A stretch of DNA of 21,358 nucleotides from Candidatus Bipolaricaulia bacterium (GTDB lineage Bacteria; Bipolaricaulota; Bipolaricaulia; JBHIAT01), in the NCBI GenBank assembly GCA_046758705.1, contig JBHIAT010000050.1:1-21358 (forward strand), written 5' to 3'. This document shows positions 99-20,839 of the stretch, in pieces. The position numbers and the translations under genes are program-made. The stretch's first letter is position 1; every line of letters starts with the position of its first letter. The notes below the pieces were generated by a model. The model was not told where the DNA came from. It made no database searches and was given only the letters and a program-made list of their open reading frames with translations.

Positions 99-136
99 AA
101 CTTTTCAACTTGTGAACTTTTCAACTTTTAACTGTT
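99..136. repeat. Short tandem repeat, ~8-nt period (AACTTTTC-like x5)
   Basis: AACTTTTC AACTTGTG AACTTTTC AACTTTT AACTGTT, directly 3' of the kinase stop codon on the minus strand. Confidence 0.75.
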
Positions 137-3100
137 TATGCCAGGCCGTGGCGCACCGCCCACACCGCTGTCTGGACCCGATCGGAGACGTGGAGTTTCA
201 TGATGATGTGCTCGACGTGGGTTTTGGCGGTGCTGACGCTGATATCGAGCACCTTGGCGATCTCGCTGTTGCTCATCCCTTCCACGACGAGCCTCAGCAC
301 CTCCCGTTCTCGGTCGGTCAATAGATCCTGGGTCAACTCGGTGCCGACTGGAGTAGTCTTAGAGCTCTCTTGGGTCAGCTCTTCGACAAGCTCTTTGAGC
401 ATCGAACGGTTGATAAGGGACTCCCCATCATGGACCCGGCGAATGGCATCAACAAGCTCCTCGCAGGGGACTTCTTTGAGTAGATACCCGGCCGCGCCGG
501 AGGCGACCGCCTGTAACAAGTAACTGGGATTGTCATAGGTCGTGAGCATGATTACGGCGATCTCCGGGTTCTCTGCCTTGATCTCTTTCAGCGCATCCAA
601 GCCGTCCATCTCCGGCATGCGAACATCCATCAGGATGATATCCGGTGCCAGTCGATTCGCTTTGACAACTGTCTGTTTCCCATTGGCCGCTTCCCCGATG
701 ATACGAATCCCTTCCACATCAAGCATGAGTCGAAGACCATCTCGTACTATGGGATGGTCATCAGCGATCAGGACAGTGATCTCACGGTTCGGTCGGCTAT
801 CCTGGTCTGCCGTAATCCTTCTTCTCCTCAAGGGGATCTCGGCCCGGACGGTCGTCCCCTGATCGAGAGCACTTTCGACTGTAAACCGGCCGCCCACCAA
901 TTTGGCCCGCTCCTGCATCGCGATCAACCCTAGCGGCTTGTCCTCCTCCCTGTCAGCTTGGTGGAGCTCTTTTGGATCGAATCCAGTTCCCCAGTCCTGC
1001 ACCTCGACGTTCAGGTGAGCTGATCGTCGCTCGATCGCCACCCGTACCCGGTCCGTCTCAGCATGCTTTTTGGCGTTGATCAGGGCTTCCTGTATAATCC
1101 GGTAGACGACCACCTCCACTGTCGGATCGAGCCGCACCTTCTCCAAATTCTCCTCGAACACCACCTCCCAGCCAGTTTCCTGTTGGAGTTCCCGCAGGTG
1201 GTCTTGGATCGCAGGGATCAGCCCGAGATGATCCAGCGTCGACGGCCGAAGCGCTGCGATGATTCGCCGTGCCTCAGTGATAGACTGATTCAGCTGGTTG
1301 AGTCCCTTCTCCAGCACTGTTTGTATCTCCTCTGTGGTGCGGGCACGTGATCTTAGCTTTTTGAGACCAGTTTTGAGGTACATGTTGGCGCTGATGATGT
1401 GCTGAATGAGCTCATCATGGATGTCGTAGGCAACCAGCCGTCGTTCCTCCTCCTGGACTTGGATCAATCGATTGACGAACGAGCGGAGTTGCTTCTCCTT
1501 CATCCTCAGGTCATCATAGAGCTGGATGTTCTCGATGGCCATGCCGATCTGATGTCCGATGGCCATCAACAGCTGAACCTCCTCTTCCGTAAACAGACGG
1601 GTGGTACGAGTGCCCAGCAGTAACGCGCCTGTGACCCGTTGTTTCGATTTCAAAGGTATAACCACCTCTGATTGCAGCCCCGCTTTCTTGATGATCTCTC
1701 GGTGGGCAACTCGGGGATCCTCAGCGAGGTTCTGGATCACGATCGGCTCCCCTGACTGGGCGACCCTCCCGGGTATCCCTTCACCCAATTTCAGTTTCAC
1801 GATGGTAAGCATCTCGACCAATTCAGACGGTATTCCCTGGTAAACAGCAGGGACAAGCTCCTGGTTGCTCTCATCTATCAGGAATATCTCACCGCACTCC
1901 ACCTCCATCAATTCTATCGCCGCACCCAGAGCTTGATCGAGAATGGCATCCAGATTCAGGGAACCACTCGCCATGCTCGCGATCTCGTACAAGGCGGACA
2001 GTTCCAGGGTGCGTTGTTGGAGCTTCTGTAGGGATCTTTTCCGCTCTTTAGACAACCGAGCGTTCTTGATGGCCAGGGTGATCTCATCCCGGACCTCCTC
2101 GATCAAATTCAGATCCTCCTCGTCGAACGCATTCTCCACAGCAAGGCTGTGGATGATAAAGCACCCCACTATCTTCCCGTCGATGTGCACTGGAACGATG
2201 ATCAATGATTTCGGATATTCCAACTCTTTGAACTGTTCCATTATCTCAGGATCATAATGCCGCTTGTGTAACGCTTTGAACTCCTCACCCTCGATAATCG
2301 TCGACTTGTTGATCGATTTCAGGATGAGGATCGAACGATCGGTGGGAATCTCGATCCGCTTCAACAACTCCAGGTCCCAGCCGCAGGTCGCCTGGAACTC
2401 GAGGATGCCTTCAGCTTCGTTTAGCATCAGGACCGAGCCGCTATCGGCATTGGGGACTATGTCGATCGCTTGTTCCAAGATAACGTTCATCAACTCCCCT
2501 AAGTTGGAGGTCTCATTCATCACCCTCATGAACCGGTTGGTTCTCCTGATTTGCCTCACCTGTTGCTCTAATTCTTCAGCCGTGAGCTTGACCTTCTCAT
2601 ATAGTCTCGCGTTCTCGATGGCCACGCCAATCTGATGCCCGATGGCCATCAACAACTGAACCTCCTTTTCAGCAAACAGACGAAATGTACGATCGCCTAA
2701 GAATAACACACCAATGAAGCGATCTTTCGATTTTAACGGTATGATCACCCCGGATTGCAGTCCCTCTTTCTTGAAGAGCTCTCGGTGGACAAGTCGGGGA
2801 TCTTCAGTGAGATTCTGGATCACGAGCGGTTTCCCGGACTGGGCGACTCTGCCAGCCCCCCCTTCATCCAATTTGAATCTCTCCTTTGCAAATGCTTTGA
2901 TCGATTCAGGAGATAACCCCTGGTAAGTGGTAAGGACGAGCTCCTGGTTACTCTCATCCATCAGGCGTATCACACCGGCCTTCGTCTTTGTCAATTCCAT
3001 CGCCCTGCTCAGAGCTTCATCGAGAATGACATTCAGATCGAGGGAACCACTTACCGTGCTCGTGATGGCATACAGGGTGGACAGCTCCAGGTTGCGTTGT

Positions 3101-3717
3101 TGGAGCTCCCACAGGGAGTTCTCCCGCTCTTCAAACAGCCGGGCGTTCTTGATGGCCAGGGTGATCTCATCCCGGATCGCCTCGATCGTCCTCAGGTCTT
3201 CCTTGTCGAAGGCGTTCTCCACAGTCTTGCTGTTGAGGGCAAAGTACCCTATCACCTTCCCGTCGATGTACACTGGGATAAAGATCGACGATTTCGGATG
3301 TCCCACCTCTTTGAGCTTCTCCACTATCTCAGGATCATAATACCGCTTGTTCAACGCTTCGATCTCCTCGCACCCGACGATCGTCGGCTCGTTGATCGAT
3401 TCCTGGATGAGGATCGTGCGATCGGCGGGGAGTTTGATCCGCTTTAACAACTCCAGGTCCCAGCCGCGGGCCGCCTGGAACTCGAAGACGTTCTCTCGTT
3501 CGTTCAACATCAGGAACGAGCCGCTGTCGGCGGTGGGAATCATGTTGATCGCTTGCTCCAAGATAACGTTCATCAACTCCTCTAAATCGGAGGTCTCATT
3601 CATCACCCTCATGAACCGATTGACACTCCTGATCCGATTCTCGGCCTGCTTGCGCTGGGTTTCTGCTATTTCTAATTCATTGATAAGTTTCCCTTTTGCC
3701 TTATCTTTATCTTTCAT
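136..3717 (-). CDS. Cytoplasmic multi-GAF histidine kinase fused to a NarL/LuxR-type response regulator (GAF x4, HisKA_3, HATPase_c, REC, LuxR HTH)
   Basis: 1193-aa ORF. GAF-end motifs (AIGHQIGVAIENARLY, EITLAIKNARL); HisKA_3 H-box QEEERRLVAYDIHDELIQ; N-box EALINAKKHA; G-boxes QDWGTGF and LGLIAMQER; receiver LIADDHPIVR / ILMDVRMPEMDG / GYLLK; LuxR HTH LTDREREVLRLVVEGMSNSEIAKVLDISVSTAKTHV. No obvious transmembrane segment. Confidence 0.93.
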   Translation of the reverse strand: MKDKDKAKGKLINELEIAETQRKQAENRIRSVNRFMRVMNETSDLEELMNVILEQAINMIPTADSGSFLMLNERENVFEFQAARGWDLELLKRIKLPADRTILIQESINEPTIVGCEEIEALNKRYYDPEIVEKLKEVGHPKSSIFIPVYIDGKVIGYFALNSKTVENAFDKEDLRTIEAIRDEITLAIKNARLFEERENSLWELQQRNLELSTLYAITSTVSGSLDLNVILDEALSRAMELTKTKAGVIRLMDESNQELVLTTYQGLSPESIKAFAKERFKLDEGGAGRVAQSGKPLVIQNLTEDPRLVHRELFKKEGLQSGVIIPLKSKDRFIGVLFLGDRTFRLFAEKEVQLLMAIGHQIGVAIENARLYEKVKLTAEELEQQVRQIRRTNRFMRVMNETSNLGELMNVILEQAIDIVPNADSGSVLMLNEAEGILEFQATCGWDLELLKRIEIPTDRSILILKSINKSTIIEGEEFKALHKRHYDPEIMEQFKELEYPKSLIIVPVHIDGKIVGCFIIHSLAVENAFDEEDLNLIEEVRDEITLAIKNARLSKERKRSLQKLQQRTLELSALYEIASMASGSLNLDAILDQALGAAIELMEVECGEIFLIDESNQELVPAVYQGIPSELVEMLTIVKLKLGEGIPGRVAQSGEPIVIQNLAEDPRVAHREIIKKAGLQSEVVIPLKSKQRVTGALLLGTRTTRLFTEEEVQLLMAIGHQIGMAIENIQLYDDLRMKEKQLRSFVNRLIQVQEEERRLVAYDIHDELIQHIISANMYLKTGLKKLRSRARTTEEIQTVLEKGLNQLNQSITEARRIIAALRPSTLDHLGLIPAIQDHLRELQQETGWEVVFEENLEKVRLDPTVEVVVYRIIQEALINAKKHAETDRVRVAIERRSAHLNVEVQDWGTGFDPKELHQADREEDKPLGLIAMQERAKLVGGRFTVESALDQGTTVRAEIPLRRRRITADQDSRPNREITVLIADDHPIVRDGLRLMLDVEGIRIIGEAANGKQTVVKANRLAPDIILMDVRMPEMDGLDALKEIKAENPEIAVIMLTTYDNPSYLLQAVASGAAGYLLKEVPCEELVDAIRRVHDGESLINRSMLKELVEELTQESSKTTPVGTELTQDLLTDREREVLRLVVEGMSNSEIAKVLDISVSTAKTHVEHIIMKLHVSDRVQTAVWAVRHGLA
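1520..3620 (-). repeat. Intragenic tandem duplication of a GAF-GAF unit, offset 1083 bp (361 codons)
   Basis: Three anchors give the same offset: CACCCTCATGAACCG at 2521 and 3604, GATGGCCAGGGTGATCTCATCCCGGA at 2068 and 3151, GATGGCCATCAACA at 1558 and 2641. Boundaries approximate. Confidence 0.9.
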
Positions 3718-4188: not shown

Positions 4189-5958
4189 ATGGCGGACCGT
4201 AAGCGCCAGAAGCCGCACGATGAGCCCCGACGCCGGCCGGGAGGAGAACCGGAGCGGGAGAACGAACCGGGGGCTTCGAAGGATCCTGATCCCGACCAGG
4301 AGGCGAGGGAGACCCAGATTCGTGCCCTGGCTATCCTGGATGAGATCCTGATGCAAACTCCAGCGGATGATCCCCAGCTCGGGCTGTTGGAGCTGCTACG
4401 CCATCAGCTCGAGGTCGACGAGCTCCAGCTCCAGGAGGCCCAGGATCTGATCGCCGAGTTCGAGGAGATCTACGAGAAGCTTACCTCCCCCGCCAACCGT
4501 ATCGGCACCTACCTGGACTCCCCGGACGAAGAGATCGCTTACATCGCTCTCGGCGACAGCGAGTATTACGTCAACGTCGATCCTAATATCGATCTCGAGT
4601 CGTTAAAGGTCGGGACCCGGGTGAGGTTAAACGAGGCGTTCGTGATCATTGGGGACCTGGGTTACCATCCTCAGGGCCCGATCGTGAAGGTTGCGGAGGT
4701 GTTAGATGATGGGCGACTGCGGATCTCGACGGAGGGGCCTGCGCAGTCGGGGCGTCTGGTGATGCGTTCCTCGGCTTTGGAAAGGGAGACGTTGAAACCC
4801 GGCGATGAGGTCCGAATGGAGCCCTCGCTGAAGGTGGCGATCGAGTCGTTCCAGAGACGGGAGGCCCGCGACTACTATCTAGAGAAGATCCCGGAGATCC
4901 CGTGGAGCCGGATCGGCGGACAAAAGGAAGCGATTCAGCTCATCCGCGATACGATCGAGCGTCCGCTCCTCTATCCGGAGTTGTATGAGCGCTTCGGCAA
5001 GCGGACGTTGAAGGGCATCCTGCTCTACGGTCCGCCGGGCTGCGGCAAGACGTTGATCGCCAAGGCGACCGCGTACAACCTCACCCAGGCCTACAGCGAG
5101 CGGATCGGCAAGGACGTGCGCGAGTACTTCATGTTCATCAACGGTCCACAGCTGCTCAACATGTGGCTGGGCGAGACCGAGCGCATGGTCCGGGAGATTT
5201 TCTCTGCCGCACGCGAGCGGGCGGCGGAGGGATACCTCGTATTCGTCTTTATCGATGAAGCCGATTCGCTGTTGCGCGCGCGCAGTTCGGGCCGCTACCT
5301 CAACATTGCCAACACCGTCGTACCTCAATTTTCCGGTGAGATGGACGGGTTGGTGGGTCTGGAGAATGTGGTGGTGATGCTCACCTCGAACCGTCCCGAC
5401 TACATCGATCCTGCGGTCCTGCGCCCGGAGCGTATCAGCCGCAAAGTCAAGATCGGCCGTCCCGACCATGACTCATCGGCCGAGATCTTTTCCATCTATC
5501 TCCATGAGGACGTGCCGCTCGATCCGGCCTGGGTGGAACGATGCGGCGGTGATTCCGAGCGAGCGCGCCGCGAGCTGATCGAGCGCGCGACCGACTATCT
5601 GTTCCGTCGCACCCGGGAGACCGCTTTCCTCAAGGTGAGTCTGCGCAGCGGTCGCCGGGAGACTCTCTACTGGAGAGATCTGGTCAGCGGTGCGTTGATC
5701 GAATCGGCGGTCGAACGAGCCAAAGAGTACGCGATCCGACGATGGATCGATGAGCAATCCGAGGGAGGCGTCAACTGGGAGAATCTAAACGAGGCGATCC
5801 AACGCGAGTACCAGGAGAACGAGATCTTCCCTAAGGCCGACATGGTTGAGGACTGGTTGAAGCTGCTCGATCACGAACCAGAGAACGTTGTCGAGGTACA
5901 CCCTGCCCAAGAGCGGGACGGGAAGGAACGTCGCCGGGACGTCGATTCGGTCGTCTGA
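4189..5958 (+). CDS. arc: Proteasome-associated AAA+ ATPase (ARC/Mpa family)
   Basis: N-terminal coiled coil followed by OB-like interdomains (KVGTRVRLNE, LKPGDEV); Walker A GPPGCGKT; pore loop LNMWLGETER; Walker B VFIDEAD; NTVVPQFSGEMDG; TSNRPDYIDPAVLRP; first gene of a dop/prc/pafA operon. Confidence 0.95.
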   Translation: MADRKRQKPHDEPRRRPGGEPERENEPGASKDPDPDQEARETQIRALAILDEILMQTPADDPQLGLLELLRHQLEVDELQLQEAQDLIAEFEEIYEKLTSPANRIGTYLDSPDEEIAYIALGDSEYYVNVDPNIDLESLKVGTRVRLNEAFVIIGDLGYHPQGPIVKVAEVLDDGRLRISTEGPAQSGRLVMRSSALERETLKPGDEVRMEPSLKVAIESFQRREARDYYLEKIPEIPWSRIGGQKEAIQLIRDTIERPLLYPELYERFGKRTLKGILLYGPPGCGKTLIAKATAYNLTQAYSERIGKDVREYFMFINGPQLLNMWLGETERMVREIFSAARERAAEGYLVFVFIDEADSLLRARSSGRYLNIANTVVPQFSGEMDGLVGLENVVVMLTSNRPDYIDPAVLRPERISRKVKIGRPDHDSSAEIFSIYLHEDVPLDPAWVERCGGDSERARRELIERATDYLFRRTRETAFLKVSLRSGRRETLYWRDLVSGALIESAVERAKEYAIRRWIDEQSEGGVNWENLNEAIQREYQENEIFPKADMVEDWLKLLDHEPENVVEVHPAQERDGKERRRDVDSVV

Positions 5959-5982
5959 ACCGGCGGACGTTAAGGAGGATCG

Positions 5983-7539
5983 ATGGAGCGGCTGATGGGC
6001 ACCGAGATCGAATATGGCTTGTATATCGACGGGGTTGATTTGGTCGATCTCGTCGACGAGGCCCGGGCGGTGGTAGCCAGTTGGCCCGGGCAATTCGCTG
6101 CACCCTGGGATTACAGCCGGGAGAACCCATTGCGCGATCTGCGGGGAGGGTACGCGTCGCGGCTGGCCACCGACCCACGGGATGACCGCTACGAAAGACC
6201 GTCTTCAAGACGGCTTACACCCCATGAGAACCATGTCGACCTCGTCCTGCCCAACGGAGCCCGGTTGTACCAGGATCACGGTCATCCCGAGTACAGCACG
6301 CCCGAATGCCGCTCCCTCTTTGACCTGGTCGCTCATGAGCGAGCGGGTGAGCGGATCGTCCGGGAATGTGCTCGCCGGTACGCCCGGAGAACCCATCACC
6401 AGGTCACCCTTTATAAGAACAACACCGACTTCCACGGGATGAGCTACGGGGCGCACGAGAACTATCTGGTGCGCCGCGATGTCCCGTTCGAACAACTGTT
6501 GAGCGGTATACTGCCGTTTTTGGTGACCCGGCAGATCTTCGCCGGGGCCGGCAAGGTAGGGGTTGAGGGAGAGAAAAACGAGGCCGGAACGATCCCGTAC
6601 CAGCTGTCGCAACGGGCGGACTTCTTCACCGAGCTTGCCGGTGTCGACACGCTCTACAAACGCCCGTTGATCAACACCCGCGATGAGCCTCATGCCGATC
6701 CCGCCCGTTTCCGGCGGTTTCACGTAATTGCTGGAGACGCCAACATGAGTGAGTATGCGCTCGCCCTGAAGCTGGGCACGACGGCCCTGGTCCTGTCTCT
6801 GATCGAGTCGGGTTGGGGTCCGAATCTGGAGTTGAAAGCGCCAGTTCAAGCAGTCCGCCATATCTCGCGGGATCCGACGTGGCGCTGGGAGGTCGAGCTG
6901 ACGGGTGGGCGGACGATGCCCGCGGTGGAGATTCAGCGTGTTTACCTGGAGGCGGCTCAGGAGCGCTATGCGGGTCAGGACGGGGAGGATGAGGAGGCGG
7001 ACTGGGTGTTGCGGGAATGGGAGGCGGTTCTGGACGGCCTCGAGACCGATCCTGAACGGCTTGCTGATCGTCTCGACTGGGTCGCGAAGCAGGGATTGCT
7101 GGCGTCGTTCATCGAGGCCGAGGGCCTGGACTGGAGCGATGAACGGTTGCTCAGCCTCGATCTCGCCTACCATGATCTCGAACCGGAGCGCGGACTCTAC
7201 AGTGCTCTTGAGGCAGACGGAGCGGTGCGACGGGTCACGACCGATGAGCAGATCCGGAAAGCGATTGAGTGTCCGCCGGCCGATACCCGGGCGTACCTGC
7301 GCGGCCTGTGTGTCAGCCAACTGGGGACATCCCTACGATCGTTGACCTGGAGTCGGATCGTCCTGGATAATCACGATACCGAGGTGGTGTTGGATTTAAG
7401 CGATTGGGTAGACGACAGGGTGGCGACGCGTAACCGGGCGTTCGCCGATGCGGAGGCGGAAGTCACCCCCGTCGGGATCAAACAGGCGATCGAGCAGCCT
7501 ATAGATGGTGATTCAAACTCTGAGGATGAGGAGGTGTAA
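5983..7539 (+). CDS. dop: Dop-family deamidase/depupylase
   Basis: RLMGTEIEYG, NGARLYQDHGHPEYSTPEC (Dop-type DHxHPEYS), YKNNTDFHGMSYGAHENY, LSQRADF, RPLINTRDEPHAD, RFHVIAGDANMSE, LDWVAK, DLAYHD, PPADTRAY; RBS AAGGAGG; directly upstream of the tag gene. Confidence 0.93.
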   Translation: MERLMGTEIEYGLYIDGVDLVDLVDEARAVVASWPGQFAAPWDYSRENPLRDLRGGYASRLATDPRDDRYERPSSRRLTPHENHVDLVLPNGARLYQDHGHPEYSTPECRSLFDLVAHERAGERIVRECARRYARRTHHQVTLYKNNTDFHGMSYGAHENYLVRRDVPFEQLLSGILPFLVTRQIFAGAGKVGVEGEKNEAGTIPYQLSQRADFFTELAGVDTLYKRPLINTRDEPHADPARFRRFHVIAGDANMSEYALALKLGTTALVLSLIESGWGPNLELKAPVQAVRHISRDPTWRWEVELTGGRTMPAVEIQRVYLEAAQERYAGQDGEDEEADWVLREWEAVLDGLETDPERLADRLDWVAKQGLLASFIEAEGLDWSDERLLSLDLAYHDLEPERGLYSALEADGAVRRVTTDEQIRKAIECPPADTRAYLRGLCVSQLGTSLRSLTWSRIVLDNHDTEVVLDLSDWVDDRVATRNRAFADAEAEVTPVGIKQAIEQPIDGDSNSEDEEV

Positions 7540-7542
7540 CCG

Positions 7543-7722
7543 ATGCCCGAACGTGTGAAGCGAAGAACGGTCGAGGAGCCTTGGACGAAGCCCAAGCAGG
7601 GCGACGATGACGGACCGCAGACCCCCGATATCGATCGGCCCGACAGCCGTCGATTGCTCGAGCGGATGAAGCGGGTCGATCCACGTCAGGCGCAGCGCTA
7701 TCGCCAGCGTAGCGGGGAGTAA
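7543..7722 (+). CDS. ubact: Ubiquitin-like protein modifier, UBact type (59 aa; absent from the ORF track)
   Basis: Manual translation: MPERVKRRTVEEPWTKPKQGDDDGPQTPDIDRPDSRRLLERMKRVDPRQAQRYRQRSGE*. RBS GAGGAGGTG at 7528-7536; sits between dop and prcB like pup; low-complexity charged N-terminus; C-terminal R-S-G-E matches the UBact R[ST]G[EQ] signature. Confidence 0.92.
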   Translation: MPERVKRRTVEEPWTKPKQGDDDGPQTPDIDRPDSRRLLERMKRVDPRQAQRYRQRSGE

Positions 7723-7760
7723 TCGGAGCCGAGAGGCGAAGGGCAGAGTGAGGTGAGACC

Positions 7761-8588
7761 ATGGGATCGAGGTTCAGATTGGATGGTGGCGCTGTTAGTG
7801 AGTCTGAGTTCGAGACGACCGGCGACTTCCTCGGGTTACTGCGTCGTAGTGGCATCCCGTTTCCCGAGGTGGGGAACGAAGGGGTCGAAAGCGGTGGGGG
7901 TCCTGCTCAGGGGCTCGGCGCTGCACATGGCACGACCGTGATCGCCGTCAAGTTCCGGGACGGCGTCCTGAACGTGGCCGACCGGCGGGCGACCTCGAGC
8001 AACTACATCCTGTACGATGAGGCGGAGAAGATCCTGTCCCTGGATGATCAGATGCTGATTGCCATCGCCGGCTCCTATGCTCAGGCGATCGAGGCGGTTC
8101 GATTCTTGAGACACAACTTCAAATATTATGCCCGCAGTCAGCTCCAGGAGATGAGCCTGGAAGGCAAGCTCGGCGAGGTCTCCCGGGTACTGGGGCGCAG
8201 CCTGCCCGGCGCACTGCAAGGGATCGGTGGCTTCCTGCCGGTGGTGAGCGCCCATGACCGACAGAACGGAGGCGGCCGAATCTTCTTCTACGATATGCTC
8301 GGCGCCCGGTTTGAGAGCCGGGAGTTCGGTGCAGCGGGGTCCGGAGCGGAGCGGATTCGGGGTGTGTTTGACTATATCGTCCGATCCAAAGGCCCGTTCC
8401 ATACGCTGTCGCTCGATGAGGTGTTGCGGGAGACGCTGTTGCTGTTGGACATCGCCGCCGGCCTGGATGCGGCGACCGCCGGTCTCGGGGGCGTACCGCC
8501 TCTGGCGAAGACGGTCACCGCCGACGGAATCGCCGATATCCCTGAGGATCATATTCGCGCCCTCCAGAAAGAATTGGTGCAGCGGTAA
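7761..8588 (+). CDS. prcB: 20S proteasome beta subunit with 57-aa propeptide
   Basis: AHG|TTVIAV autocleavage site (Thr1 codon at 7932); Asp17 (ADRRAT) and Lys33 (AEKI) in canonical register; AGSG motif; RBS GAGGTG at 7750-7755. Confidence 0.95.
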   Translation: MGSRFRLDGGAVSESEFETTGDFLGLLRRSGIPFPEVGNEGVESGGGPAQGLGAAHGTTVIAVKFRDGVLNVADRRATSSNYILYDEAEKILSLDDQMLIAIAGSYAQAIEAVRFLRHNFKYYARSQLQEMSLEGKLGEVSRVLGRSLPGALQGIGGFLPVVSAHDRQNGGGRIFFYDMLGARFESREFGAAGSGAERIRGVFDYIVRSKGPFHTLSLDEVLRETLLLLDIAAGLDAATAGLGGVPPLAKTVTADGIADIPEDHIRALQKELVQR

Positions 8589-8597
8589 GGATATAAG

Positions 8598-9446
8598 ATG
8601 GCCTACAGCTACAGCCCGTACGATTGGCAACAGACGCTCCATCAGAAGGCGGAGTACGTCGAGGATCGGCTGAAGCGCGGCAGCCCCGTTGTCGCGCTGA
8701 GTTGCGTGTTGGGGATCTTGTTACTCACGATCCGGGGGAGTCAGCGAAAGATCTTTGAGATCTACGACCGGCTGGTGTTCACCGGACTCGGCAATCCTGC
8801 TGATCTGGAGGTGGTACGCCATCAGACGGTCGACTTCACCCACCTGGAGGGCTACCAACGCAGCCCGGAGGATGTCTCGATCCAGCGGGTGGTCGGCTTC
8901 TCCGTCAGCCCCGTCCTGAAGCGCTTCTTCAGCGATCCTCTCAGAATGCCGCTCGTGCTGAGGGGGCTATTCACCCAGGTCGGGGATCTCCCTGAGGAGG
9001 ATCTGTTCCTGACGGTCAACTACGATGGGGAGTTCAACACGCGAACGCACCACGCCGTCGTGGCCGGGACCGGGGCGGCCGAGGTGCAAATGGATCGATT
9101 GCTTAAGGGGCTCAGAACCGGAGTCGACCGACCCCTGTCTCTGGAGGCCGCCATCGAGGCCGCTTTGGAGGTGTGGACGGTAGGGTGGTGGCATGCCCGC
9201 CATGGAGAGGAGGGCGTGGGATCAGATGAGGATAATGGTGAGCCCGAGGGTGAGGGAGCGAACGGTCTTCCCACCGAGGAGGAACGCCATGAGTTCCTGG
9301 TCGACGCGCTCGCCGACGGTGTCGTTGAAGCCGTCCTGCTGGAGCGGGAGCCTCAACGAGAGCGCCGGTACCGGAGCCTTGAAGACGAGGAAGTGAGGCG
9401 GTTCCTGCCGCCCTCCCAAGGGCCGGCCGAGGGCGGGGGAGGGTAA
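8598..9446 (+). CDS. prcA: 20S proteasome alpha subunit
   Basis: YSPYDWQQTLHQKAEYVEDRLKRGSPVV N-terminal helix, KIFEIYDRL, VNYDG, EAVLLER; follows prcB. Confidence 0.92.
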   Translation: MAYSYSPYDWQQTLHQKAEYVEDRLKRGSPVVALSCVLGILLLTIRGSQRKIFEIYDRLVFTGLGNPADLEVVRHQTVDFTHLEGYQRSPEDVSIQRVVGFSVSPVLKRFFSDPLRMPLVLRGLFTQVGDLPEEDLFLTVNYDGEFNTRTHHAVVAGTGAAEVQMDRLLKGLRTGVDRPLSLEAAIEAALEVWTVGWWHARHGEEGVGSDEDNGEPEGEGANGLPTEEERHEFLVDALADGVVEAVLLEREPQRERRYRSLEDEEVRRFLPPSQGPAEGGGG

Positions 9447-9452
9447 ACGACC

Positions 9453-10940
9453 GTGCCGGACCGCATCGTCGGGTTGGAGACAGAGTTTGGATGTCTGGTA
9501 CGCGATCCCAGCCTGGGTTCCCCGGAGGAGGTCGTCCGATGCGTGAAAGACACGGCATTTTGTTCCGGATCCGAATCGTGGGGATTGCTCGATCGCCATA
9601 GCCGCGACCCGTATTTCGAACCCGCCGAGTCCGGCGGGTTCCTCATCAACGGGGGGCGGTTGTACGTGGATTCGGTGGGGGATCATGAGGAGTACGCCAC
9701 TCCGGAATGCCAAGTGCTCATCGATCTGATCACGTACGACCGGGCCGGGCGACGTCTGCTCGGACGGCTGCTGCATGACCTGGGTTGGAGTAAAGGCGTC
9801 AGTTTCCATAGCAACAGCATCGATCACTTCGGTGGCCACACCTTCGGTTGTCACGAGAACTACTCCCTCGACCCGGATGCCCTGGCTACCCGAGATTCCC
9901 TCGCTCCGCTGATCCCGTTCTTGGTGACCCGACAGATCTTCGCCGGGTCAGGTCGGGTCGGCGGTCACCGGCTCACCCGAAACCTCGGGGTTCGGAAGAG
10001 CCATGAGCTGGCGAGGAACCCGATCGACCATATATTTATCGACCATCTCTACGGTGTGGAACCGGACCCAACGGTGGAGTTCCAACTGTCCCAGCGAGCC
10101 GATCATATCTTGTACATCGTCTCGGAGCGTGTCCGCTTCCGCCGGGCGCTGATCAACCCCAAGTGGTGGGACAGCTCTAACGACCTCGATCGTGCCCCCC
10201 GGCTGCACGTCCTGTTCGGTGAATCGAATATGTCGGAGTACGCGGCATACTTGAAGGTGGGAACCACCGCCCTGGTGCTCGATCTGCTGGAGGCGAACCA
10301 GGGGCCGAAACTCAGGTTGATCGATCCGATTCAGTCATTGAGGCAGATCTCTCGCGATCCCACCTGGCGCTGGATCGTGCGCACGCAAAAGGGGAAGACC
10401 ATATCTGCGGTGGACCTGCAACGCCTCTACTTGGAGGCAGCCATACGATGCTTCTCGGGTCGAGATGAGGAAACGGACTGGGTACTTAGAGAGTGGGGGG
10501 TCGTCCTCGACGGGCTGGGGCGCGATCCGACCTCGATGAGCGATCGACTCGATTGGGTCGCCAAACGCAACCTGTTGGAAACGTACATAGATGCCGAACG
10601 GATTGATTGGGGGGACGAGGTGCTGCATAGCCTCGACCTGGAATACCATAATATCGATCCCAAGAACGGCCTGTACTATGCTCTGGAGAGCATGGAACAG
10701 GTTCGTCGCCTGACGAACGACGAGGCGATCGAACGGGCGCTCTGTGAGCCGCCCCCGGACACCCGAGCCTACGGCCGCGCTCGCGTCATCAAGGAGTTGC
10801 TAAAACGAGGAGCACGGCATTACCGCATCGAGTGGGACAGCGTCTCGGCCGGCCAACGAGACCGGCGAACCCTAATCCTGGACAACCCATTCTCCCCCTA
10901 CCGACGTCAGGTGGAGCGATTCCTCCGGCGAATATGGTAG
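9453..10940 (+). CDS. pafA: PafA-family Pup/UBact-protein ligase
   Basis: GTG start; RIVGLETEFG, NGGRLYVDSVGDHEEYATPEC, GCHENY, LSQRADHI, RLHVLFGESNMSE, LKVGTT, LDWVAK, LDLEYHNI, PPPDTRA; last gene of the operon and paralogous to dop. Confidence 0.9.
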   Translation: MPDRIVGLETEFGCLVRDPSLGSPEEVVRCVKDTAFCSGSESWGLLDRHSRDPYFEPAESGGFLINGGRLYVDSVGDHEEYATPECQVLIDLITYDRAGRRLLGRLLHDLGWSKGVSFHSNSIDHFGGHTFGCHENYSLDPDALATRDSLAPLIPFLVTRQIFAGSGRVGGHRLTRNLGVRKSHELARNPIDHIFIDHLYGVEPDPTVEFQLSQRADHILYIVSERVRFRRALINPKWWDSSNDLDRAPRLHVLFGESNMSEYAAYLKVGTTALVLDLLEANQGPKLRLIDPIQSLRQISRDPTWRWIVRTQKGKTISAVDLQRLYLEAAIRCFSGRDEETDWVLREWGVVLDGLGRDPTSMSDRLDWVAKRNLLETYIDAERIDWGDEVLHSLDLEYHNIDPKNGLYYALESMEQVRRLTNDEAIERALCEPPPDTRAYGRARVIKELLKRGARHYRIEWDSVSAGQRDRRTLILDNPFSPYRRQVERFLRRIW

Positions 10941-10948
10941 CGTATTAT

Positions 10949-13900
10949 CTAGAAGTTGGTGATCACACCGAGTGAGGCGAGGAAGGTGTTGTAGGAATCC
11001 TCGGCGTTCAGATAGTCGACCCCGGTGATGTAGCTGATCGAGAAATTCAGAGCCCACATCTCTCCCAGTTGGTAGTCGAGCCCGAGCGTGACCTCGGCGC
11101 TCAGTTCGTCGGTCGCCTCTCCCTGTTCCTCTCCGACCTGGTAGTTCCCGGTGGTGGTGAATTTGGAGGAGATCCCCGGGGCGACGGCATAGCTCAGCGT
11201 GTTGGAGAGCGAATAGGTGGTCATTACTTGGTCCAGTTCGGTCCGCTGTGTCCAGTTCTGCGACAGGGATAGATTATCGGTTATTCCCGGGCCGAGCTGC
11301 CAGGTCAACCCGGCGGTGGTGGTGGTCGTAGCCGTCTCTTGCAGTCCGAAAGTCGGATGCTCCAACAGCCCGTTCGTCGCCCGAAACTCGAGGCGTGGGG
11401 TGATCCCCTTAAGCCCGGTGTAGCTGGTGCTGAGGGAAAGTTCATCCTGGGTGTTGCGCTTGATTCCGCTCCCCACGAGTTGTTGATCGACCTGACTCTG
11501 AGTGTAGGAGAGCCGGGTGTTCAGTTTCCTATAGACCCCGGTCAGGCCGCCGGTTCCGGAGATCGTCGTCGTCGGGGTCCCCGGAGCGAGGGGCTCGGTC
11601 TGATCCCACCTCAGGTTGACGGAAGGGGTGAGTCGCAACCCCCCTAGTTGGAAGCTTTTGAAATTGACCGTGGTGGACGTATTCTCCGTCCTTCCCGGCT
11701 CGCTGAATTCGCCCGTGAGGAACTGGTCGGGTTCCAGATCATCTATCTCCCAGCGGTTGTTCTGGCTGTAAATGGTGTTCACAGTGAATGGGCCGAAGTC
11801 GTTCGACCAGCGGGCCGACCAGTTAAGGGTCTGATTGCCATCGATCACCTGGGTCACCTTGATCGGCAGGGAGTAGTTCAGATTCAGAAACAGGTTCTTG
11901 ACGATCTCATAGCTGACGTTGCCGATCAGGTTATGGGAGACGAACGAGTTCAGCGCCTGGACCAGATCGTCGTAGTCCACCTGCTGGTAGCCGATCCCCA
12001 AGGTCAGCCGTCCGCTCAGGAACCGTTCGCTCACCGAGAGCTGATAGGTGCGCTGCCGTTTGTCGGTGAATGTTGGTATCTGAGTAGCCGACCGTTGGTC
12101 GGTGTAATCGAGTCCGATCTCTGGACCGAGCTCCCATTGCAGACCGAGGTCGTCGGTGACCGTCCGGCTCGACGACTGCTCCGAGTCGACGTGGGAGGCG
12201 GAGATGGAGAGTTTGGGGGTGATGTCGTAATCAGCGGCCAGGCTCAACCGTTGTTGGTCAAGACGGTTGAGCCAACCGATTGCGGTGAACGACGGCTCGA
12301 TCCGCTCGAAGCTCGCCCGTACCTCTCCCCGATCGAACCGGTAATCGAGGTCGACCCGTCCGGCCCAACCCTGGTCGATGATCGATGCGTCAGGATCCTG
12401 ATAGCGGAACTGATCCTCACCGGCGATTCCGGTATCCTCATCCGGATACTCTTTGTCGAGCAAACCGGTTTCAACTCTCCAGATGGATAGCTCGTAGGCG
12501 CTGTCCGCTTCGGAACCGATCCACAGGGTGGTCCCGTCGGCCGCCAGCGCGGTGATCTTCGGGTCGGCAGCCCCGCTGATCAGGTCGAGGCGAACCGAGT
12601 TGCGATAGAGCCCATCGTCCCTCCCGACCCAAAGCCTCCCGTTTTCATAAGCGACGGAATAGGCAGGACGCCCATCGGTCGGCGAGTTCCATCCAGTGGC
12701 GTCCACAAACCCCACGCCACTATCGGTCGCCACGTAGAGATTGCCATCATCCCCTATGGCCATATCGTGAACCGGTTCATCAGAAACGGTCTCGAACTTG
12801 GTCTGCGGCGGATCCAGCGACATCAGTCCAGCATCCGTGCCCAAGTACATCTTATTGTCATACTCCTCGATCATGAGGATGACGTCGCTGAGCATCTCCG
12901 GGTATTCCTCTGTGTCATAGATCGTCCACTCGTTTGTTTGTCCCTCATCCTTTAGGATGTCGAGCGATATCTTCCCAAACCCGGCATCGGTTCCCACCCA
13001 GAGTTCTCCTTGATCATCGTCGACAAAGACAGTGTAGATGGTGCTGCTCGGCAGACCATCGCTCGTGTGGAAACGTTTCCAGTTTTCCACGACCGGGAAC
13101 GGATCGAGTTCTCTCTCCAATGTGGTGAGCCCCGACTCGGTGGCAAAGAACCAGCGATCTGGATCGAAATCGATATCGTAGACCGTCCGCCCTGACAGGC
13201 CGTCTGAGACATCGTAGCTCGTCCAGCTTGGGGTCTGATAGACGGTCAGTCCATTCCGGTGGGCAAAGAAGACCGTTTGGCCCGGATCGGGATCAGCAAA
13301 AATATCATGAATCTGGTTGAATTGGTTCGCTTTGCTGTTGTTATCGAACGGGAATTCGTCGTGGTTGTACGCCAGTTCGAGGTTCAGATCGAAGGCATCC
13401 CCGGTGTATCGGGCGGTGAAGCCCGTCACCGTATGGGTATTCGGCATGGTCGTGGCGCGCTCCGGATCGACGGTCGGTGTGGGACTGTCCTTCAACTGGA
13501 GCAGGTCAACGTTAAAAGAGAGGCGGTCGGTGGGTTGATACCCGAACGATACTCCGTAGAAGTTGCTCTTGTACTCGGTGAAGCCGCCGAGCCCGCCCCG
13601 GAACGTCTCGTAGTCGATCCGCAGCACGTCGTCGATCGTCACTTCACGGAACAGGATCACGATACCGAACTCGTAGTCGATGGTGTAGTCGATGTCCCGC
13701 TCGAGCAGCTCATCGTTCAGATAGACCTTCTCGCTCCCCTGGACGATCGACAGCCCCAGCACATAAACGTTCTCTGAAATCGTGTAGTTGTAGCTTGTCC
13801 TGATTGCATATAAGCCGCCCGAAAGCAGCTCGAGGATGCCCTCCTCGTCAAAGATGAACGGATCCAGATCGGGACGTACCTGCTCTATGGGTTGATAACT

Positions 13901-15043
13901 GTCGCTGGATGTCAATTTTACCTCAATCGTCACGGTATCCAGTTCGATCTCCTGATGGCCCAGGTCATAGAATCTCCTCCGGCTGTAGCTGTTTAATGGG
14001 GTGGCCACCAGCGCCTCGGTGTTCTCCGGCGGGCTGCCCGCTTCAATCTGGACGTGCTCATCTCGCAACTCCTCAAGAAACAAAAGTTCGGGATCGGTTC
14101 CCTCATTCCAGGGGTACTGTTTCTGCGCGTCACCTTCCAACTCGTTCTTCTCGTTATATTCCCGGATGAAATCCTGGATTTGATCTCTGAGCAGGTCTAA
14201 CGCTTCCCGCTTCAGGAGCAGGTAGTGCTCCTCCCCTAGGGTGGTGATGGCCACATACACCCCTGAACTGATCTCCTGAGTGTCTCCTTCGGCGAGCACC
14301 CCATCATCCGTGTCACTCTCCCGATAGAGGTAGTCCAGTCCGTAGTTCATTAACAGGTCCTTCAGGCTCCGGCTGGCCCCTCCAGCCGTTTGATATCTCA
14401 ACCGCACCTCCATAAAATCCGAGTCGAACCTGTCATCCAGTGGACCGTAGAACTCAAGGCCCTCAATGTCGGCGACGAGCTGATCGTTCTCGTCTCGTCT
14501 TGGACTGTAGGAAGCATCCGGTTCAAATGCGGTGATATCACTGCTTGAGTTTCCAGAGAATTCCTTGGAGGCCGAGGTCCCCTGGATCCGGGAGATGACC
14601 CCGGTGGCCGAGAACTCGCTGAGCGCTCCGGTCAACTCCGCTCCCTTCAGGCTCTTGTTGTAGACCGTGTAGCGGTTGTTCGGCCGGAAGGTGAAGTCAC
14701 CGAACCGTCCTTTCCAGTTGTCGGTATCCAGTGTAATCGTGATCAGCTGGAGGTTCTCATCGCTGAAATCATCGAGGTGGGCCGAGATTGACAGGCCCGT
14801 GGCGATCTCGCCGGAGATATCGACGCCGAGGGACTGGTCGAGGAGGAGCTGGTTCCGCGCATAGTCCTGTCCTGGAATCCCCTCCTGGTCCCCCCAAGCA
14901 TACTTGAGGGTCCAGGTCTTGGTTCCCAAGATCTTCAGGTTGGACGACCCATCATCTCCCCCGTCCTGAGCGAAGGTGTTTATAGAGATCAACACCAACA
15001 ACGTTAAGGACAGGGCGAAGCGGGTGATCGGCATCGGTTTCAT
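10949..15043 (-). CDS. Large secreted, probable outer-membrane beta-barrel protein with SprA-like N-terminal motifs and an internal beta-propeller
   Basis: 1364 aa. Signal peptide (…LTLLVLISINTFA|QD); long amphipathic beta-strand C-terminal region ending in Phe (ASLGVITNF); propeller repeats SDGLSGRTVYDI, SDGLPSSTIYTV…LWVGTDAG, MYLGTDAGL, LYVATDSGV, LWVGRDDGL. The ORF is well supported; the function call is by-eye resemblance. Confidence 0.7.
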   Translation of the reverse strand: MKPMPITRFALSLTLLVLISINTFAQDGGDDGSSNLKILGTKTWTLKYAWGDQEGIPGQDYARNQLLLDQSLGVDISGEIATGLSISAHLDDFSDENLQLITITLDTDNWKGRFGDFTFRPNNRYTVYNKSLKGAELTGALSEFSATGVISRIQGTSASKEFSGNSSSDITAFEPDASYSPRRDENDQLVADIEGLEFYGPLDDRFDSDFMEVRLRYQTAGGASRSLKDLLMNYGLDYLYRESDTDDGVLAEGDTQEISSGVYVAITTLGEEHYLLLKREALDLLRDQIQDFIREYNEKNELEGDAQKQYPWNEGTDPELLFLEELRDEHVQIEAGSPPENTEALVATPLNSYSRRRFYDLGHQEIELDTVTIEVKLTSSDSYQPIEQVRPDLDPFIFDEEGILELLSGGLYAIRTSYNYTISENVYVLGLSIVQGSEKVYLNDELLERDIDYTIDYEFGIVILFREVTIDDVLRIDYETFRGGLGGFTEYKSNFYGVSFGYQPTDRLSFNVDLLQLKDSPTPTVDPERATTMPNTHTVTGFTARYTGDAFDLNLELAYNHDEFPFDNNSKANQFNQIHDIFADPDPGQTVFFAHRNGLTVYQTPSWTSYDVSDGLSGRTVYDIDFDPDRWFFATESGLTTLERELDPFPVVENWKRFHTSDGLPSSTIYTVFVDDDQGELWVGTDAGFGKISLDILKDEGQTNEWTIYDTEEYPEMLSDVILMIEEYDNKMYLGTDAGLMSLDPPQTKFETVSDEPVHDMAIGDDGNLYVATDSGVGFVDATGWNSPTDGRPAYSVAYENGRLWVGRDDGLYRNSVRLDLISGAADPKITALAADGTTLWIGSEADSAYELSIWRVETGLLDKEYPDEDTGIAGEDQFRYQDPDASIIDQGWAGRVDLDYRFDRGEVRASFERIEPSFTAIGWLNRLDQQRLSLAADYDITPKLSISASHVDSEQSSSRTVTDDLGLQWELGPEIGLDYTDQRSATQIPTFTDKRQRTYQLSVSERFLSGRLTLGIGYQQVDYDDLVQALNSFVSHNLIGNVSYEIVKNLFLNLNYSLPIKVTQVIDGNQTLNWSARWSNDFGPFTVNTIYSQNNRWEIDDLEPDQFLTGEFSEPGRTENTSTTVNFKSFQLGGLRLTPSVNLRWDQTEPLAPGTPTTTISGTGGLTGVYRKLNTRLSYTQSQVDQQLVGSGIKRNTQDELSLSTSYTGLKGITPRLEFRATNGLLEHPTFGLQETATTTTTAGLTWQLGPGITDNLSLSQNWTQRTELDQVMTTYSLSNTLSYAVAPGISSKFTTTGNYQVGEEQGEATDELSAEVTLGLDYQLGEMWALNFSISYITGVDYLNAEDSYNTFLASLGVITNF

Positions 15044-15147: not shown

Positions 15148-16623
15148 TCAGCGGAGCGGCATGAACCGGGTCCGGTCTCCCCGCATGATGGTGAAGACCG
15201 GATTCTCATCCTCACTTATCCCGCCGACGATCTCGTTCCATTCCTCGACGGAGTTGACCGGGCGGCGGTCGACTTCAAGGATCACATCTCCAGGCTGGAG
15301 CCCGGCCCAAAACGCCTTGCTCCCTGACTCGACATCGATGATGGCCATTCCCTCATCCGTTGCAAGATCCATCCGCTCAGCGAGATCCCTTGAGTTCTCG
15401 GTAACGGTGACCCCGAATTTGGGAACCGGTGCAACGCCGCGGGGGGCGAGTGCCGAGGTCTCCGGCCGCTCACCCAGGGTGACGTTTACCTCGATCTGCT
15501 GACCATCCCGGATCACCTCTAAGGTGACCTGCTCGCCGACCTGTCGAAACATGATCTCATCTTGCAGGCCACTCGGGCCTTGGATCAGGTTGCCGTCTAC
15601 TTTGAGGATCACATCGCCGCGCTCGAGTTTCCCGTCGGAGGGCGAACCTCCCACCACGTCGCTGACCAGAGTGCCCCGCTCCGGTTCGACATTGAACTCC
15701 TCGGCCAGCTGTGGGGTGACCACCTGGATGAAGACGCCGAGCCACGCCCGTCGCACCCGGCCCGTTTCGATCAGTTGGGGTAGGATCTGTTTGGCACTGT
15801 TGATCGAGATGGCGAAGTTGAGCCCCTCCAGGGGGATGCCCCGATCCCCGGCCCGTTGGATGGCGGCATTGATGCCGATGACCTCCGCGTGGGCATTGAC
15901 GAGAGGGCCGCCGCTGTTACCCGGGTTGATGGCGGCGTCGGTCTGGATCATATCACGATACAGGCCGTTGCCGTTGGGCTTCGGGATGTCCCGGTGTAGT
16001 GCGCTGACGACCCCGACGGTGACGGTGCTGAACAATCCTTCGGGGTTGCCGATGGCGATCGCCCATTCCCCGATGATTGCCCCATCTGAATCCCCGAGCG
16101 ACAGCGCCGTGGGCAGATTGTCGAGGCTGGCGCCGAACAGTCCCTGCCTCAACTCCAGGACCGCCAGGTCTACGTCGGCATCGCTGCCGATCACCTCGGC
16201 ATCGTATCGCTTGCCGTTGGGGAAGATCACCGTGATCTTATCGGCGTCGGCTACCACATGCTGGTTGGTCAGCACGTATTTGCGTCCACCGAACTGGATC
16301 ACGAATCCCGAGCCCAGTGCCGAGATCTGACGCTCCCGCTCATCGAACGGGGCCGGGTCCCCAAAGAAGAACCGGAAGTATCGCTCGAAGGTCTCATCCT
16401 GGAAGAACCGACTGAACGGATCTTGAACCGCCACCTGACGGGTAACCTCGATCCGTGCCACCGAGGAGCCGGTCTCTTGGATCACATCGGTGATCGCATT
16501 CTGGCGCGATATGGTGATCTCGTCTTGGGCGCTGGCCGGGGTGTCGGCCGGGCCCCACAGGGAAAGACCGATCCCGATGAACAAAAGCACCAGGATCGGC
16601 AAGAAATAGCGCTTCATTTGCAT
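15148..16623 (-). CDS. htrA: HtrA/DegP (Do-family) serine protease with two PDZ domains, 491 aa
   Basis: Start reassigned to ATG 16623 (RBS AGGAGGT just upstream; signal peptide MQMKRYFLPILVLLFIGIGL…ASA|QD). LGSGF, TNQHVV (His), DLAVL (Asp), IQTDAAINPGNSGGPL (Ser); PDZ motifs WLGVF and AGLQPGDVILEVD. Confidence 0.95.
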   Translation of the reverse strand: MQMKRYFLPILVLLFIGIGLSLWGPADTPASAQDEITISRQNAITDVIQETGSSVARIEVTRQVAVQDPFSRFFQDETFERYFRFFFGDPAPFDERERQISALGSGFVIQFGGRKYVLTNQHVVADADKITVIFPNGKRYDAEVIGSDADVDLAVLELRQGLFGASLDNLPTALSLGDSDGAIIGEWAIAIGNPEGLFSTVTVGVVSALHRDIPKPNGNGLYRDMIQTDAAINPGNSGGPLVNAHAEVIGINAAIQRAGDRGIPLEGLNFAISINSAKQILPQLIETGRVRRAWLGVFIQVVTPQLAEEFNVEPERGTLVSDVVGGSPSDGKLERGDVILKVDGNLIQGPSGLQDEIMFRQVGEQVTLEVIRDGQQIEVNVTLGERPETSALAPRGVAPVPKFGVTVTENSRDLAERMDLATDEGMAIIDVESGSKAFWAGLQPGDVILEVDRRPVNSVEEWNEIVGGISEDENPVFTIMRGDRTRFMPLR

Positions 16624-16637
16624 GGTGACCTCCTGGC

Positions 16638-16663
16638 TTGTATTACAAAGCTTTGCAATATAA
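16638..16663. promoter_or_regulatory. 26-bp imperfect palindrome next to the htrA RBS
   Basis: TTGTATTACAAAG|CTTTGCAATATAA, 11 of 13 positions dyad-symmetric. Confidence 0.5.
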
Positions 16664-16682
16664 CTTATAAGAAGCTGCAGGG

Positions 16683-16721
16683 TAGAAAAGCAATGGAAAA
16701 CGGGTGGAAGTCCAGTGGAAA
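16683..16721. promoter_or_regulatory. Four direct-repeat boxes at 11-bp phase, candidate OmpR/PhoB-family operator
   Basis: TAGAAA 16683, TGGAAA 16694, TGGAAG 16705, TGGAAA 16716, in the divergent htrA/kinase intergenic region. Confidence 0.6.
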
Positions 16722-16798
16722 CCTCCGGCGCGGTTGAAGCTCCGGTGTGACGGCGATAGAATGAAATGAGACATAGATATCGCACGGAGAGTGGCGTG

Positions 16799-20571: not shown

Positions 20572-20836
20572 CAGTCGAACGCCAACGGTCGAACACGAGG
20601 CTTTCGTATATGTTACCTCCGAGCCAAAAGACAGTGAGTGGGGGCAACCAGCCGCCAGTTACTACGAGTTCACAACGGTCGGCACCACGCTGCGCGGCCA
20701 ACTAATTGCGGAGGTCTACTTGGCATCATCATCTTCGGATATTCCCCCCATTGATTTGCACCTTGCCGCAGAATTGGAGGCCTGGGACGCCGCGAGTGAT
20801 GAGGCCCTGGCTAACTTTGAGGCAACGCTGGACTGA
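20558..20836 (+). CDS. Putative antitoxin, 92 aa, acidic
   Basis: RBS GGGAGG at 20547-20552; ends 3 nt before the MazF-like gene; acidic C-terminal helix AAELEAWDAASDEALANFE resembles antitoxin tails seen beside PemK/MazF toxins (by-eye recollection). Confidence 0.6.
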   Translation: MTAVDSRTPTVEHEAFVYVTSEPKDSEWGQPAASYYEFTTVGTTLRGQLIAEVYLASSSSDIPPIDLHLAAELEAWDAASDEALANFEATLD

Positions 20837-20839
20837 CAC

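Follow-up and report, generated by a model that had tools for sequence, protein, structure and literature searches.

A UBact gene between dop and prcB

The stretch of DNA analysed here, which we call the window, comprises the 21,358 nucleotides of contig JBHIAT010000050.1 from a Candidatus Bipolaricaulia bacterium (assembly GCA_046758705.1). It carries a bacterial proteasome operon in the order ARC-Dop-UBact-PrcB-PrcA-PafA: six plus-strand genes at positions 4189-10940, separated by gaps of 3 to 38 nt, all of them intact open reading frames (ORFs). The subject of this report is the third gene, which encodes a small tag of the UBact family. A preliminary description of the window had proposed an intact set of tag, ligase, eraser, unfoldase and 20S proteasome genes, and this is what the operon contains. 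The whole genome holds one UBact gene and two genes of the Pup_ligase family, all of them within this operon. Between positions 3600 and 11200 neither promoter-like sites (3 found, 2.1 expected) nor terminator-like sites (4 found, 4.1 expected) give a signal above chance, and the operon is not a base-composition island, with 57-63% G+C as compared to 50-62% in the flanks.

The gap between dop and prcB is occupied by a short ORF, translation of which yields MPERVKRRTVEEPWTKPKQGDDDGPQTPDIDRPDSRRLLERMKRVDPRQAQRYRQRSGE, a product of 59 aa. Its C-terminal end reads LLERMKRVDPRQAQRYRQRSGE, with RQRSGE as the last residues before the stop. A Shine-Dalgarno sequence, GAGGAGGTG, lies inside the 3' end of dop; the spacing from AGGAGG to the ATG is 8 nt, and the dop stop codon (7537-7539) is separated from the ATG by 3 nt. 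Purine runs resembling GAGGAGGTG are also seen upstream of orthologous tag ORFs. The preliminary description had placed an unlisted ORF with a strong ribosome-binding site between dop and prcB, and its coordinates, ribosome-binding site and 59-aa product were all correct. It had also called the tag hidden; this is true of an ORF list filtered by length, but not of public records, in which homologues are already labelled UBact. A 118-aa antisense ORF (7499-7855) overlaps the tag ORF, and the codon pattern agrees with the plus-strand frame. The N-terminal half of the tag is predicted to be flexible, while the C-terminal half, residues 31-59, is basic and contains the invariant motif RVDPRQAxRYRQRSG[EQ]. 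The net charge of the tag is +4 (pI 10.1), and that of residues 31-59 is +5.

The tag is assigned to UBact and not to Pup

The tag was compared with both families by hidden Markov models (HMMs), a comparison that the preliminary description had suggested. Both UBact models are passed: Pfam PF20513 scores 74.1 bits (E 7.3e-21; cut-off 27.8) and the NCBIfam equivalog model NF033388 scores 80.5 bits (cut-off 35). A six-frame search of the genome with the UBact model finds the tag with 79.2 bits. The Pup model PF05639, in contrast, has no match at E ≤ 10, either in hmmscan of the tag or when the whole 3.7-Mb genome is searched in six frames. As a positive control for the latter we used Corynebacterium glutamicum, where the six-frame Pup search passes its cut-off. 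With the E threshold relaxed to 10, Pfam and NCBIfam show no further family for the tag. The single tag sequence matches nothing among all solved chains at E ≤ 10, Pup chains included. A profile built from 19 tag members, searched against the same chains, retrieved purine nucleoside phosphorylase and LipL32 with E-values of 0.29-1.8, which are chance matches, and no Pup.

The C-terminus points the same way as the models. The tail of the tag is SGE and does not have the G-G-[EQ] form of Pup; its RSGE end conforms to R-[ST]-G-[EQ], which we take to be the end motif of UBact and which agrees with the endings of 115 of the best 150 representatives of the family (see below). The UBact type, as opposed to Pup, that the preliminary description had assigned is thus borne out by the HMMs and by the tail. 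By sequence, then, the tag is UBact, and its resemblance to Pup is confined to genomic context and the terminal G[EQ].

Table 1. Coordinates of the proteasome operon genes and of motifs within them (positions in the window)
Feature	Position	Strand	Description
ARC/Mpa-type proteasomal AAA+ unfoldase	4189-5958	+	589 aa; Pfam Prot_ATP_ID_OB_N, Prot_ATP_ID_OB_C, AAA
ARC N-terminal coiled coil	4354-4488	+	about residues 56-100
ARC Walker A	5029-5052	+	GPPGCGKT
ARC pore loop 1	5158-5181	+	N-M-W-L-G-E-T-E
ARC C-terminus	5944-5955	+	DSVV
Dop-type deamidase/deconjugase homologue	5983-7539	+	518 aa; Pup_ligase 545.6 bits
Dop-loop	6103-6234	+	about residues 41-84
Dop homologue, conserved motif	6274-6306	+	DHGHPEYSTPE
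Shine-Dalgarno sequence of the tag gene	7528-7536	+	inside the dop 3' end; read directly from the sequence
UBact tag gene	7543-7722	+	59 aa; ATG at 7543, TAA at 7720-7722; RSGE end
PrcB, 20S proteasome beta subunit	7761-8588	+	275 aa; Pfam Proteasome 82.3 bits
PrcB cleavage-site motif	7926-7949	+	HG|TTV; catalytic Thr is residue 58
PrcA, divergent 20S proteasome alpha subunit	8598-9446	+	282 aa; TIGR03691 56.8 bits, E 2.1e-15
PafA-like ligase	9453-10940	+	495 aa; second Pup_ligase paralogue, 404.7 bits
PafA-like ligase, catalytic Asp motif	9669-9707	+	D73-S-V-G-D-H
PafA-like ligase, 39-aa insert	9963-10079	+	residues 171-209
PafA-like ligase, SQRADH	within 10089-10109	+	PafA-type His218 after SQRAD
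PafA-like ligase, altered motif	10155-10184	+	NPKWWDSSND
PafA-like ligase, C-terminal tail	10878-10901	+	DNPFS (LxLxDPFS)

Conservation of the tag and selection on the encoded peptide

A word-indexed search returned 18 relatives that are 64-75% identical to the tag (the nearest at 75%), and every one of them carries PF20513. Two of the 18, in records of Candidatus Fraserbacteria and Candidatus Acetothermia, are publicly named 'ubiquitin-like protein UBact'. In the alignment the last 17 residues are invariant except for one Q/R/E position and the terminal residue, which is E or Q; the E/Q alternation is restricted to this last residue. Its proportions differ between samples: 9 E and 10 Q among the 19 aligned members, 21 E and 7 Q in 28 loci, and 46 E and 82 Q among the best 150 representatives of a wider profile search. 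That search covered 1.84 billion representative proteins and gave 179 clusters at E ≤ 0.001, 89 of them at E ≤ 1e-10. The R[ST]G[EQ] endings among its best 150 representatives are RTGQ (62), RTGE (26), RSGE (16) and RSGQ (11); the other 35 end in near-variants such as RAGE and KSGQ or are read-through or mis-called products. The basic charge is kept as well, the last 29 residues carrying +2 to +8 in all 115 canonical representatives, which extends to the family the basic C-terminal half that the preliminary description had pointed out in the window tag.

The tag ORF was found in all 28 loci examined, the window included. Across these loci the last 17 codons show 0.067, 0.058 and 0.484 pairwise differences per site at codon positions 1, 2 and 3, respectively, and this dominance of the third position is the mark of purifying selection on the encoded peptide. 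We also examined four metagenome runs, in which there are no variants within 7543-7722 and 19 variant sites in the surrounding 701 bases (positions 7300-8000), which are located at the 3' end of dop, in the spacer and in prcB. One of the runs is without cover of 7577-7641, and since all four come from one hydrothermal-vent study, and one of them is possibly the source of the window itself, the variant-free tag is to be read as a weak hint. The tag gene is real and coding.

Two observations concern the copy number of the tag elsewhere. In one metagenome locus the canonical tag adjoins another UBact-like ORF, which is diverged and ends in HHYKQRAGQ, and one genome of the window's phylum has two UBact matches on separate contigs.

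Synteny and distribution

Gene order was followed in two sets of loci. The first consists of 27 loci from GTDB species genomes, labelled as Bipolaricaulota, Acetothermia, Fraserbacteria, 'Thermotogae' and, in one case, Armatimonadota. The tag directly follows dop in 25 of these, and prcB lies downstream of the tag in 26. Nineteen loci have a PafA-like gene after prcA; the gene is absent in four despite at least 3.8 kb of downstream sequence, and in the remaining four the contig end cuts the locus. ARC is directly upstream of dop in 10 of the 27. The second set, 80 metagenome loci, was found through alignment to Dop. UBact directly follows dop in 65 of the 80 and is located further on, directly before prcB, in another two; eight loci end too early to judge, and five have no UBact in the available stretch. 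None of the 80 has a GG[EQ] tag downstream of dop: all are of UBact type or undecidable. Homologues at the same operon position, on which the preliminary description had made its proposal depend, are thus present in the 27 genome loci and in 67 of the 80 metagenome loci. A real gene, belonging to the UBact family and embedded in a conserved operon, is what we observe directly.

The remaining 17 of the 27 genome loci have no ARC upstream of dop, several of them with more than 4 kb of upstream sequence, and the linkage of ARC is therefore variable.

Within the window's phylum UBact was detected in 30 of 184 species genomes, many of which are incomplete. The carriers belong to the window's family and to four others (1/1, 17/18, 3/3 and 8/9 genomes); other families of the phylum are without UBact (0/50, 0/19 and 0/74, for example). 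The window genome is the sole UBact carrier of its family in the set searched.

Two Pup_ligase paralogues and a modelled tag-ligase complex

Both paralogues in the operon match Pup_ligase (PF03136) over the full length of the family, to which the PafA and Dop structures 4B0T, 4BJR and 4B0R belong. The first scores 475.7 bits with the Dop model TIGR03688, just under its cut-off of 492.3, versus 389.8 bits with the PafA model; among solved chains it scores 404.9 bits with Dop 4b0r, versus 283.7 with PafA 4b0t, in an alignment that spans the Dop-loop. Its D98-H99 and its S-T-P agree with the Dop markers in Table 1 of Hecht et al. 2020 (PMC7947786, available text). The same table lists V-G after the catalytic Asp as PafA-type, and in Corynebacterium PafA this region reads D-V-G-S-H. 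The second paralogue has the V-G in question, in D73-S-V-G-D-H, and no Dop-loop. It also has the PafA-type His218, and its C-terminal tail aligns to the end with PafA 4B0T, not with Dop. With the Dop of the same operon it shares 43% identity in an alignment of 405 residues. Residues invariant among its orthologues include E9, E11, D73, H134, E135 and R215. Between GRVG and FQLSQRA it carries a 39-aa insert that is kept in 18 orthologues and is specific to the lineage. By the markers of Hecht et al. the first paralogue is Dop-like and the second PafA-like, the second being ambiguous by score. A division of this kind is described for the Nitrospirae, sequences of which split into separate Dop and PafA clades (PMC7947786, available text).

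The complex of tag and ligase, proposed for modelling in the preliminary description, was predicted with an ipSAE score of 0.86, as compared to 0.10 for the best control. Of 80 solved complexes, 58 reach the ipSAE mark that we apply, as do two of 110 mismatched pairs. Contacts agreed between runs by at least 82%, and the predicted local distance difference test (pLDDT) of the partner was at least 57 (57-58). On the UBact side the confident interface comprises residues 34-35, 37-39, 41-42 and 45-59, and on the ligase side residues 11, 13-15, 17, 73, 75-78, 119, 124-134, 254 and 374-416, which lie in the catalytic strands and in the helical domain at the C-terminus; UBact residues 45-59 are placed near E11, D73 and H134. 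In the model, the active-site groove of the PafA-like ligase receives the C-terminal half of UBact, which supports docking of the tag. The sites on the 64-residue Pup that are reported for PafA, residues 38-47 and 51-58, lie in its C-terminal half, those for Mpa at 21-51 (PMC5314882, available text), and the predicted docking mode of UBact on the ligase is thus the same as that of Pup.

ARC and the 20S proteasome subunits

ARC has two OB domains and a Walker A motif, and shares the OB-OB-AAA architecture of Mpa and actinobacterial ARC. It scores 342 bits with the Mpa chain 5kwa_A and 446.8 bits with TIGR03689, which is under the cut-off of 504.75. Three of its traits set it apart. In pore loop 1 the window ARC has M-W, as do 119 of its best 120 homologues, where Mpa has K-F; the pore-loop Lys is described as strictly conserved across Actinobacteria (PMC8755798, available text). 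Its C-terminus has the form [VI][VI], again as in 119 of the best 120 homologues and in 48 of the 49 metagenome-locus ARCs with complete 3' ends, and the conservation of this end suggests a functional docking tail. By sequence, the [VI][VI] tail and the M-W pore loop are conserved, clade-wide traits of ARC. Finally, the N-terminal coiled coil has a net charge of -10; of 114 full-length ARC relatives, 105 are negative over the corresponding alignment columns (median -4), and over the 18 coil residues aligned with Mpa the net charge is -5 in the window ARC and 0 in Mpa by our own count. These charges are compatible with electrostatic pairing between a basic tag and an acidic ARC coil.

PrcB retains a propeptide and a cleavage site followed by the catalytic Thr. 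It matches the Rhodococcus beta subunit 2h6j_H (E 1.2e-22), and the mature chain 1q5q_H begins at PrcB residue 58; with TIGR03690 it scores 116.2 bits (cut-off 191.9). PrcA has no Pfam match. Its score with TIGR03691 is under the cut-off of 139.05, and solved Rhodococcus and mycobacterial alpha chains are matched with E-values of about 1e-7. Orthologues of PrcA are kept at the same operon place, and its K51 stands opposite a Lys in the alignment with the Rhodococcus alpha subunit.

Proposed role of UBact and alternative explanations

We consider it highly probable that the ORF encodes UBact as a small, largely disordered modifier, the counterpart of Pup in Bipolaricaulota/Fraserbacteria-like and other non-actinobacterial lineages, and that it acts as follows. 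The PafA-like enzyme would hold UBact in its groove by the basic C-terminal half, phosphorylate the side-chain carboxylate of Glu59 with ATP and join Glu59 to a target lysine. The Dop homologue would strip the tag and, in Gln-ending relatives, would deamidate it first. The acidic coiled coil of ARC would capture the basic UBact helix, and ARC would thread the conjugate and feed it to the PrcAB 20S particle (7761-9446). Conjugation, removal, recognition by ARC and degradation are steps that we infer by analogy with pupylation. Pup, too, is known to alternate between Glu and Gln at the terminus. Such an alternation is understandable only with a reactive side-chain carboxylate and an available Dop-type amidase, and conversely it is what a Dop-dependent conjugation chemistry predicts. 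Since the window tag ends in Glu, it could be ligated without prior deamidation, and it is reasonable to suppose, as the preliminary description did, that Dop serves here mainly as a deconjugase.

Several results weigh against this proposal. UBact has no detectable sequence similarity to Pup, either by HMM at E ≤ 10 or by sequence and profile against solved chains, so that the analogy with Pup rests on context and the terminal G[EQ]. All five partner proteins fall under their NCBIfam equivalog cut-offs, which makes them divergent relatives rather than textbook orthologues. The PafA-like enzyme in particular is far under the PafA cut-off (280.7 versus 551.3 bits with TIGR03686), is nearly equidistant from Dop (274.2 bits) and is nearer to solved Dop (227.7 bits) than to solved PafA (195.5 bits). 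Its NPKWWDSSND, of which NPKW(W)D is kept in 18 orthologues, replaces the NTRDEPHAD that solved Dop and PafA have in common. The complex model was supplied with its own alignments and may pass by likeness to the solved PafA-Pup complex 4BJR; its pass shows likeness and is not a proof of binding. ARC ends in DSVV, without GQYL. Among the four public runs that cover the stretch, all of DNA, there is no RNA run, and we found no experimental study of UBact conjugation in a literature search that left subscription journals largely outside.

The simplest alternative, a frame that is open by chance in the G+C-rich sequence between two genes and encodes nothing, has a negligible probability. The ORF is short and has the 118-aa antisense ORF across it, but it passes two curated HMMs, has relatives in 179 representative clusters, is found in 28 of 28 loci with substitutions dominated by the third codon position, and is free of variants in the four metagenome runs as against the 19 sites around it, with the reservation given above on their single study and possible source run. 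The conservation has already refuted this explanation. It is also improbable, though less so, that UBact is a real protein that is never conjugated and acts instead non-covalently on the proteasome or on the Dop/PafA enzymes, as a cofactor, an assembly factor or a regulator. A short, basic protein of predicted flexibility, to which the complex model gives a partner pLDDT of 57-58, would suit such a role, and no UBact conjugate is reported in the searchable literature. This role is hard to reconcile with the position of the near-invariant last 17 residues at the extreme C-terminus, with an E/Q alternation at the last residue only, with the co-occurrence of ligase-type and deamidase-type paralogues, and with a model that sets UBact 45-59 against the ligase catalytic strands, E11, D73 and H134 among them.

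The alternative that we take most seriously, while still considering it unlikely, accepts conjugation but holds that delivery to the 20S particle via ARC is not the main fate of the conjugates: UBact would chiefly signal regulation or unfolding, or the docking of ARC on the 20S would differ from that of Mpa. GQYL or a penultimate aromatic residue is found in none of the best 120 ARC homologues and in none of the 49 metagenome ARCs, and reviews call GQYL essential for Mpa and PafE in opening the 20S particle and describe degradation-independent pupylation in Corynebacterium (PMC12288473 and PMC8223512, available text). The separation of ARC from dop in 17 of the 27 loci can be read in the same sense. 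On the other side, nearly all loci have prcB and prcA in the interval from tag to ligase, PrcB retains both the catalytic Thr and the site of maturation, and the aligned K51 of PrcA is in place; the [VI][VI] end of ARC, itself conserved in 119 of 120 homologues, looks like a docking tail in its own right. We favour tagging for degradation by the proteasome.

A related question is how far the mycobacterial system can serve as a guide. The basic tag and the acidic ARC coil, the M-W pore loop, the [VI][VI] tail, the insert in the ligase and its replaced NTRDEPHAD suggest that UBact systems may not simply be Pup systems in other phyla but a co-adapted module, in which the electrostatics are reversed and the proteasome is coupled in another way. 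We put this forward tentatively, as somewhat short of an even bet. If it is true, then tag recognition, threading and gate opening could not be read off from the mycobacterial system.

Relation to known systems

The name UBact reportedly goes back to Lehmann et al. in 2017, and their paper is said to list Acetothermia and Fraserbacteria among the carriers. The window tag shares with this family both HMMs, the R-S-G-E end, the length of 59 aa and the position between dop and prcB, and differs from it in nothing essential. Pup is acidic. It has in common with UBact a similar size, the operon position, a Gly followed by terminal Glu or Gln, the Dop/PafA pair, ARC and PrcAB, and docks on PafA through its C-terminal half, as is predicted for UBact; the two differ in the tail, SGE as opposed to GGE/Q, and in charge, with a basic C-terminal half (net +5) in UBact. 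Iyer, Burroughs and Aravind 2008 (PMC2588565, available text) described Pup-like tags ending in G[EQ] in nitrospirae, verrucomicrobia, planctomycetes and deltaproteobacteria, and noted the paired PafA paralogues that accompany these non-actinobacterial tags. The mentions of the UBact family that we examined, in the accessible portions of the respective articles, are passing citations only.

The novelty claimed in the preliminary description was overstated, since the family has been named, Pfam and NCBIfam models for it exist and close homologues already bear the label UBact. The tag is a good yet unremarkable member of a family already described, and the locus extends the known UBact operons by another well-preserved one, from a metagenome-assembled genome of hydrothermal-vent origin related to Bipolaricaulota and Fraserbacteria, while leaving existing knowledge unchanged. 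With its compact, complete set of six genes and a tag that already ends in Glu, it is a convenient candidate for a first reconstitution of UBact conjugation. The ARC without GQYL, its M-W pore loop and acidic coil, and the insert and altered motif of the ligase are traits of possible specialist interest.

Other genes in the window

Divergent from the proteasome operon, and 472 nt apart from it, is a minus-strand gene (136-3717) for a 1193-aa hybrid sensor-regulator with four GAF domains, HisKA_3, HATPase, a receiver and a LuxR-type helix-turn-helix. A 1364-aa minus-strand ORF (10949-15043), the sole Pfam match of which is to the Reg_prop repeat, converges on the end of the operon. It is followed by an ORF for an HtrA-like protease with Trypsin_2 and two PDZ domains (15148-17049, minus strand), which overlaps the start of a plus-strand histidine-kinase gene (16766-18328) by 284 nt; the true start of the protease is probably further in than listed. 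After this overlap come a kinase, a response regulator and a gene of the metallo-beta-lactamase fold. Near the end of the window lies a PemK/MazF-type toxin gene (20840-21190; Pfam E 8e-22), and a 92-aa ORF (20558-20836) ends 3 nt before it; together they are probably a toxin-antitoxin pair (20558-21190).

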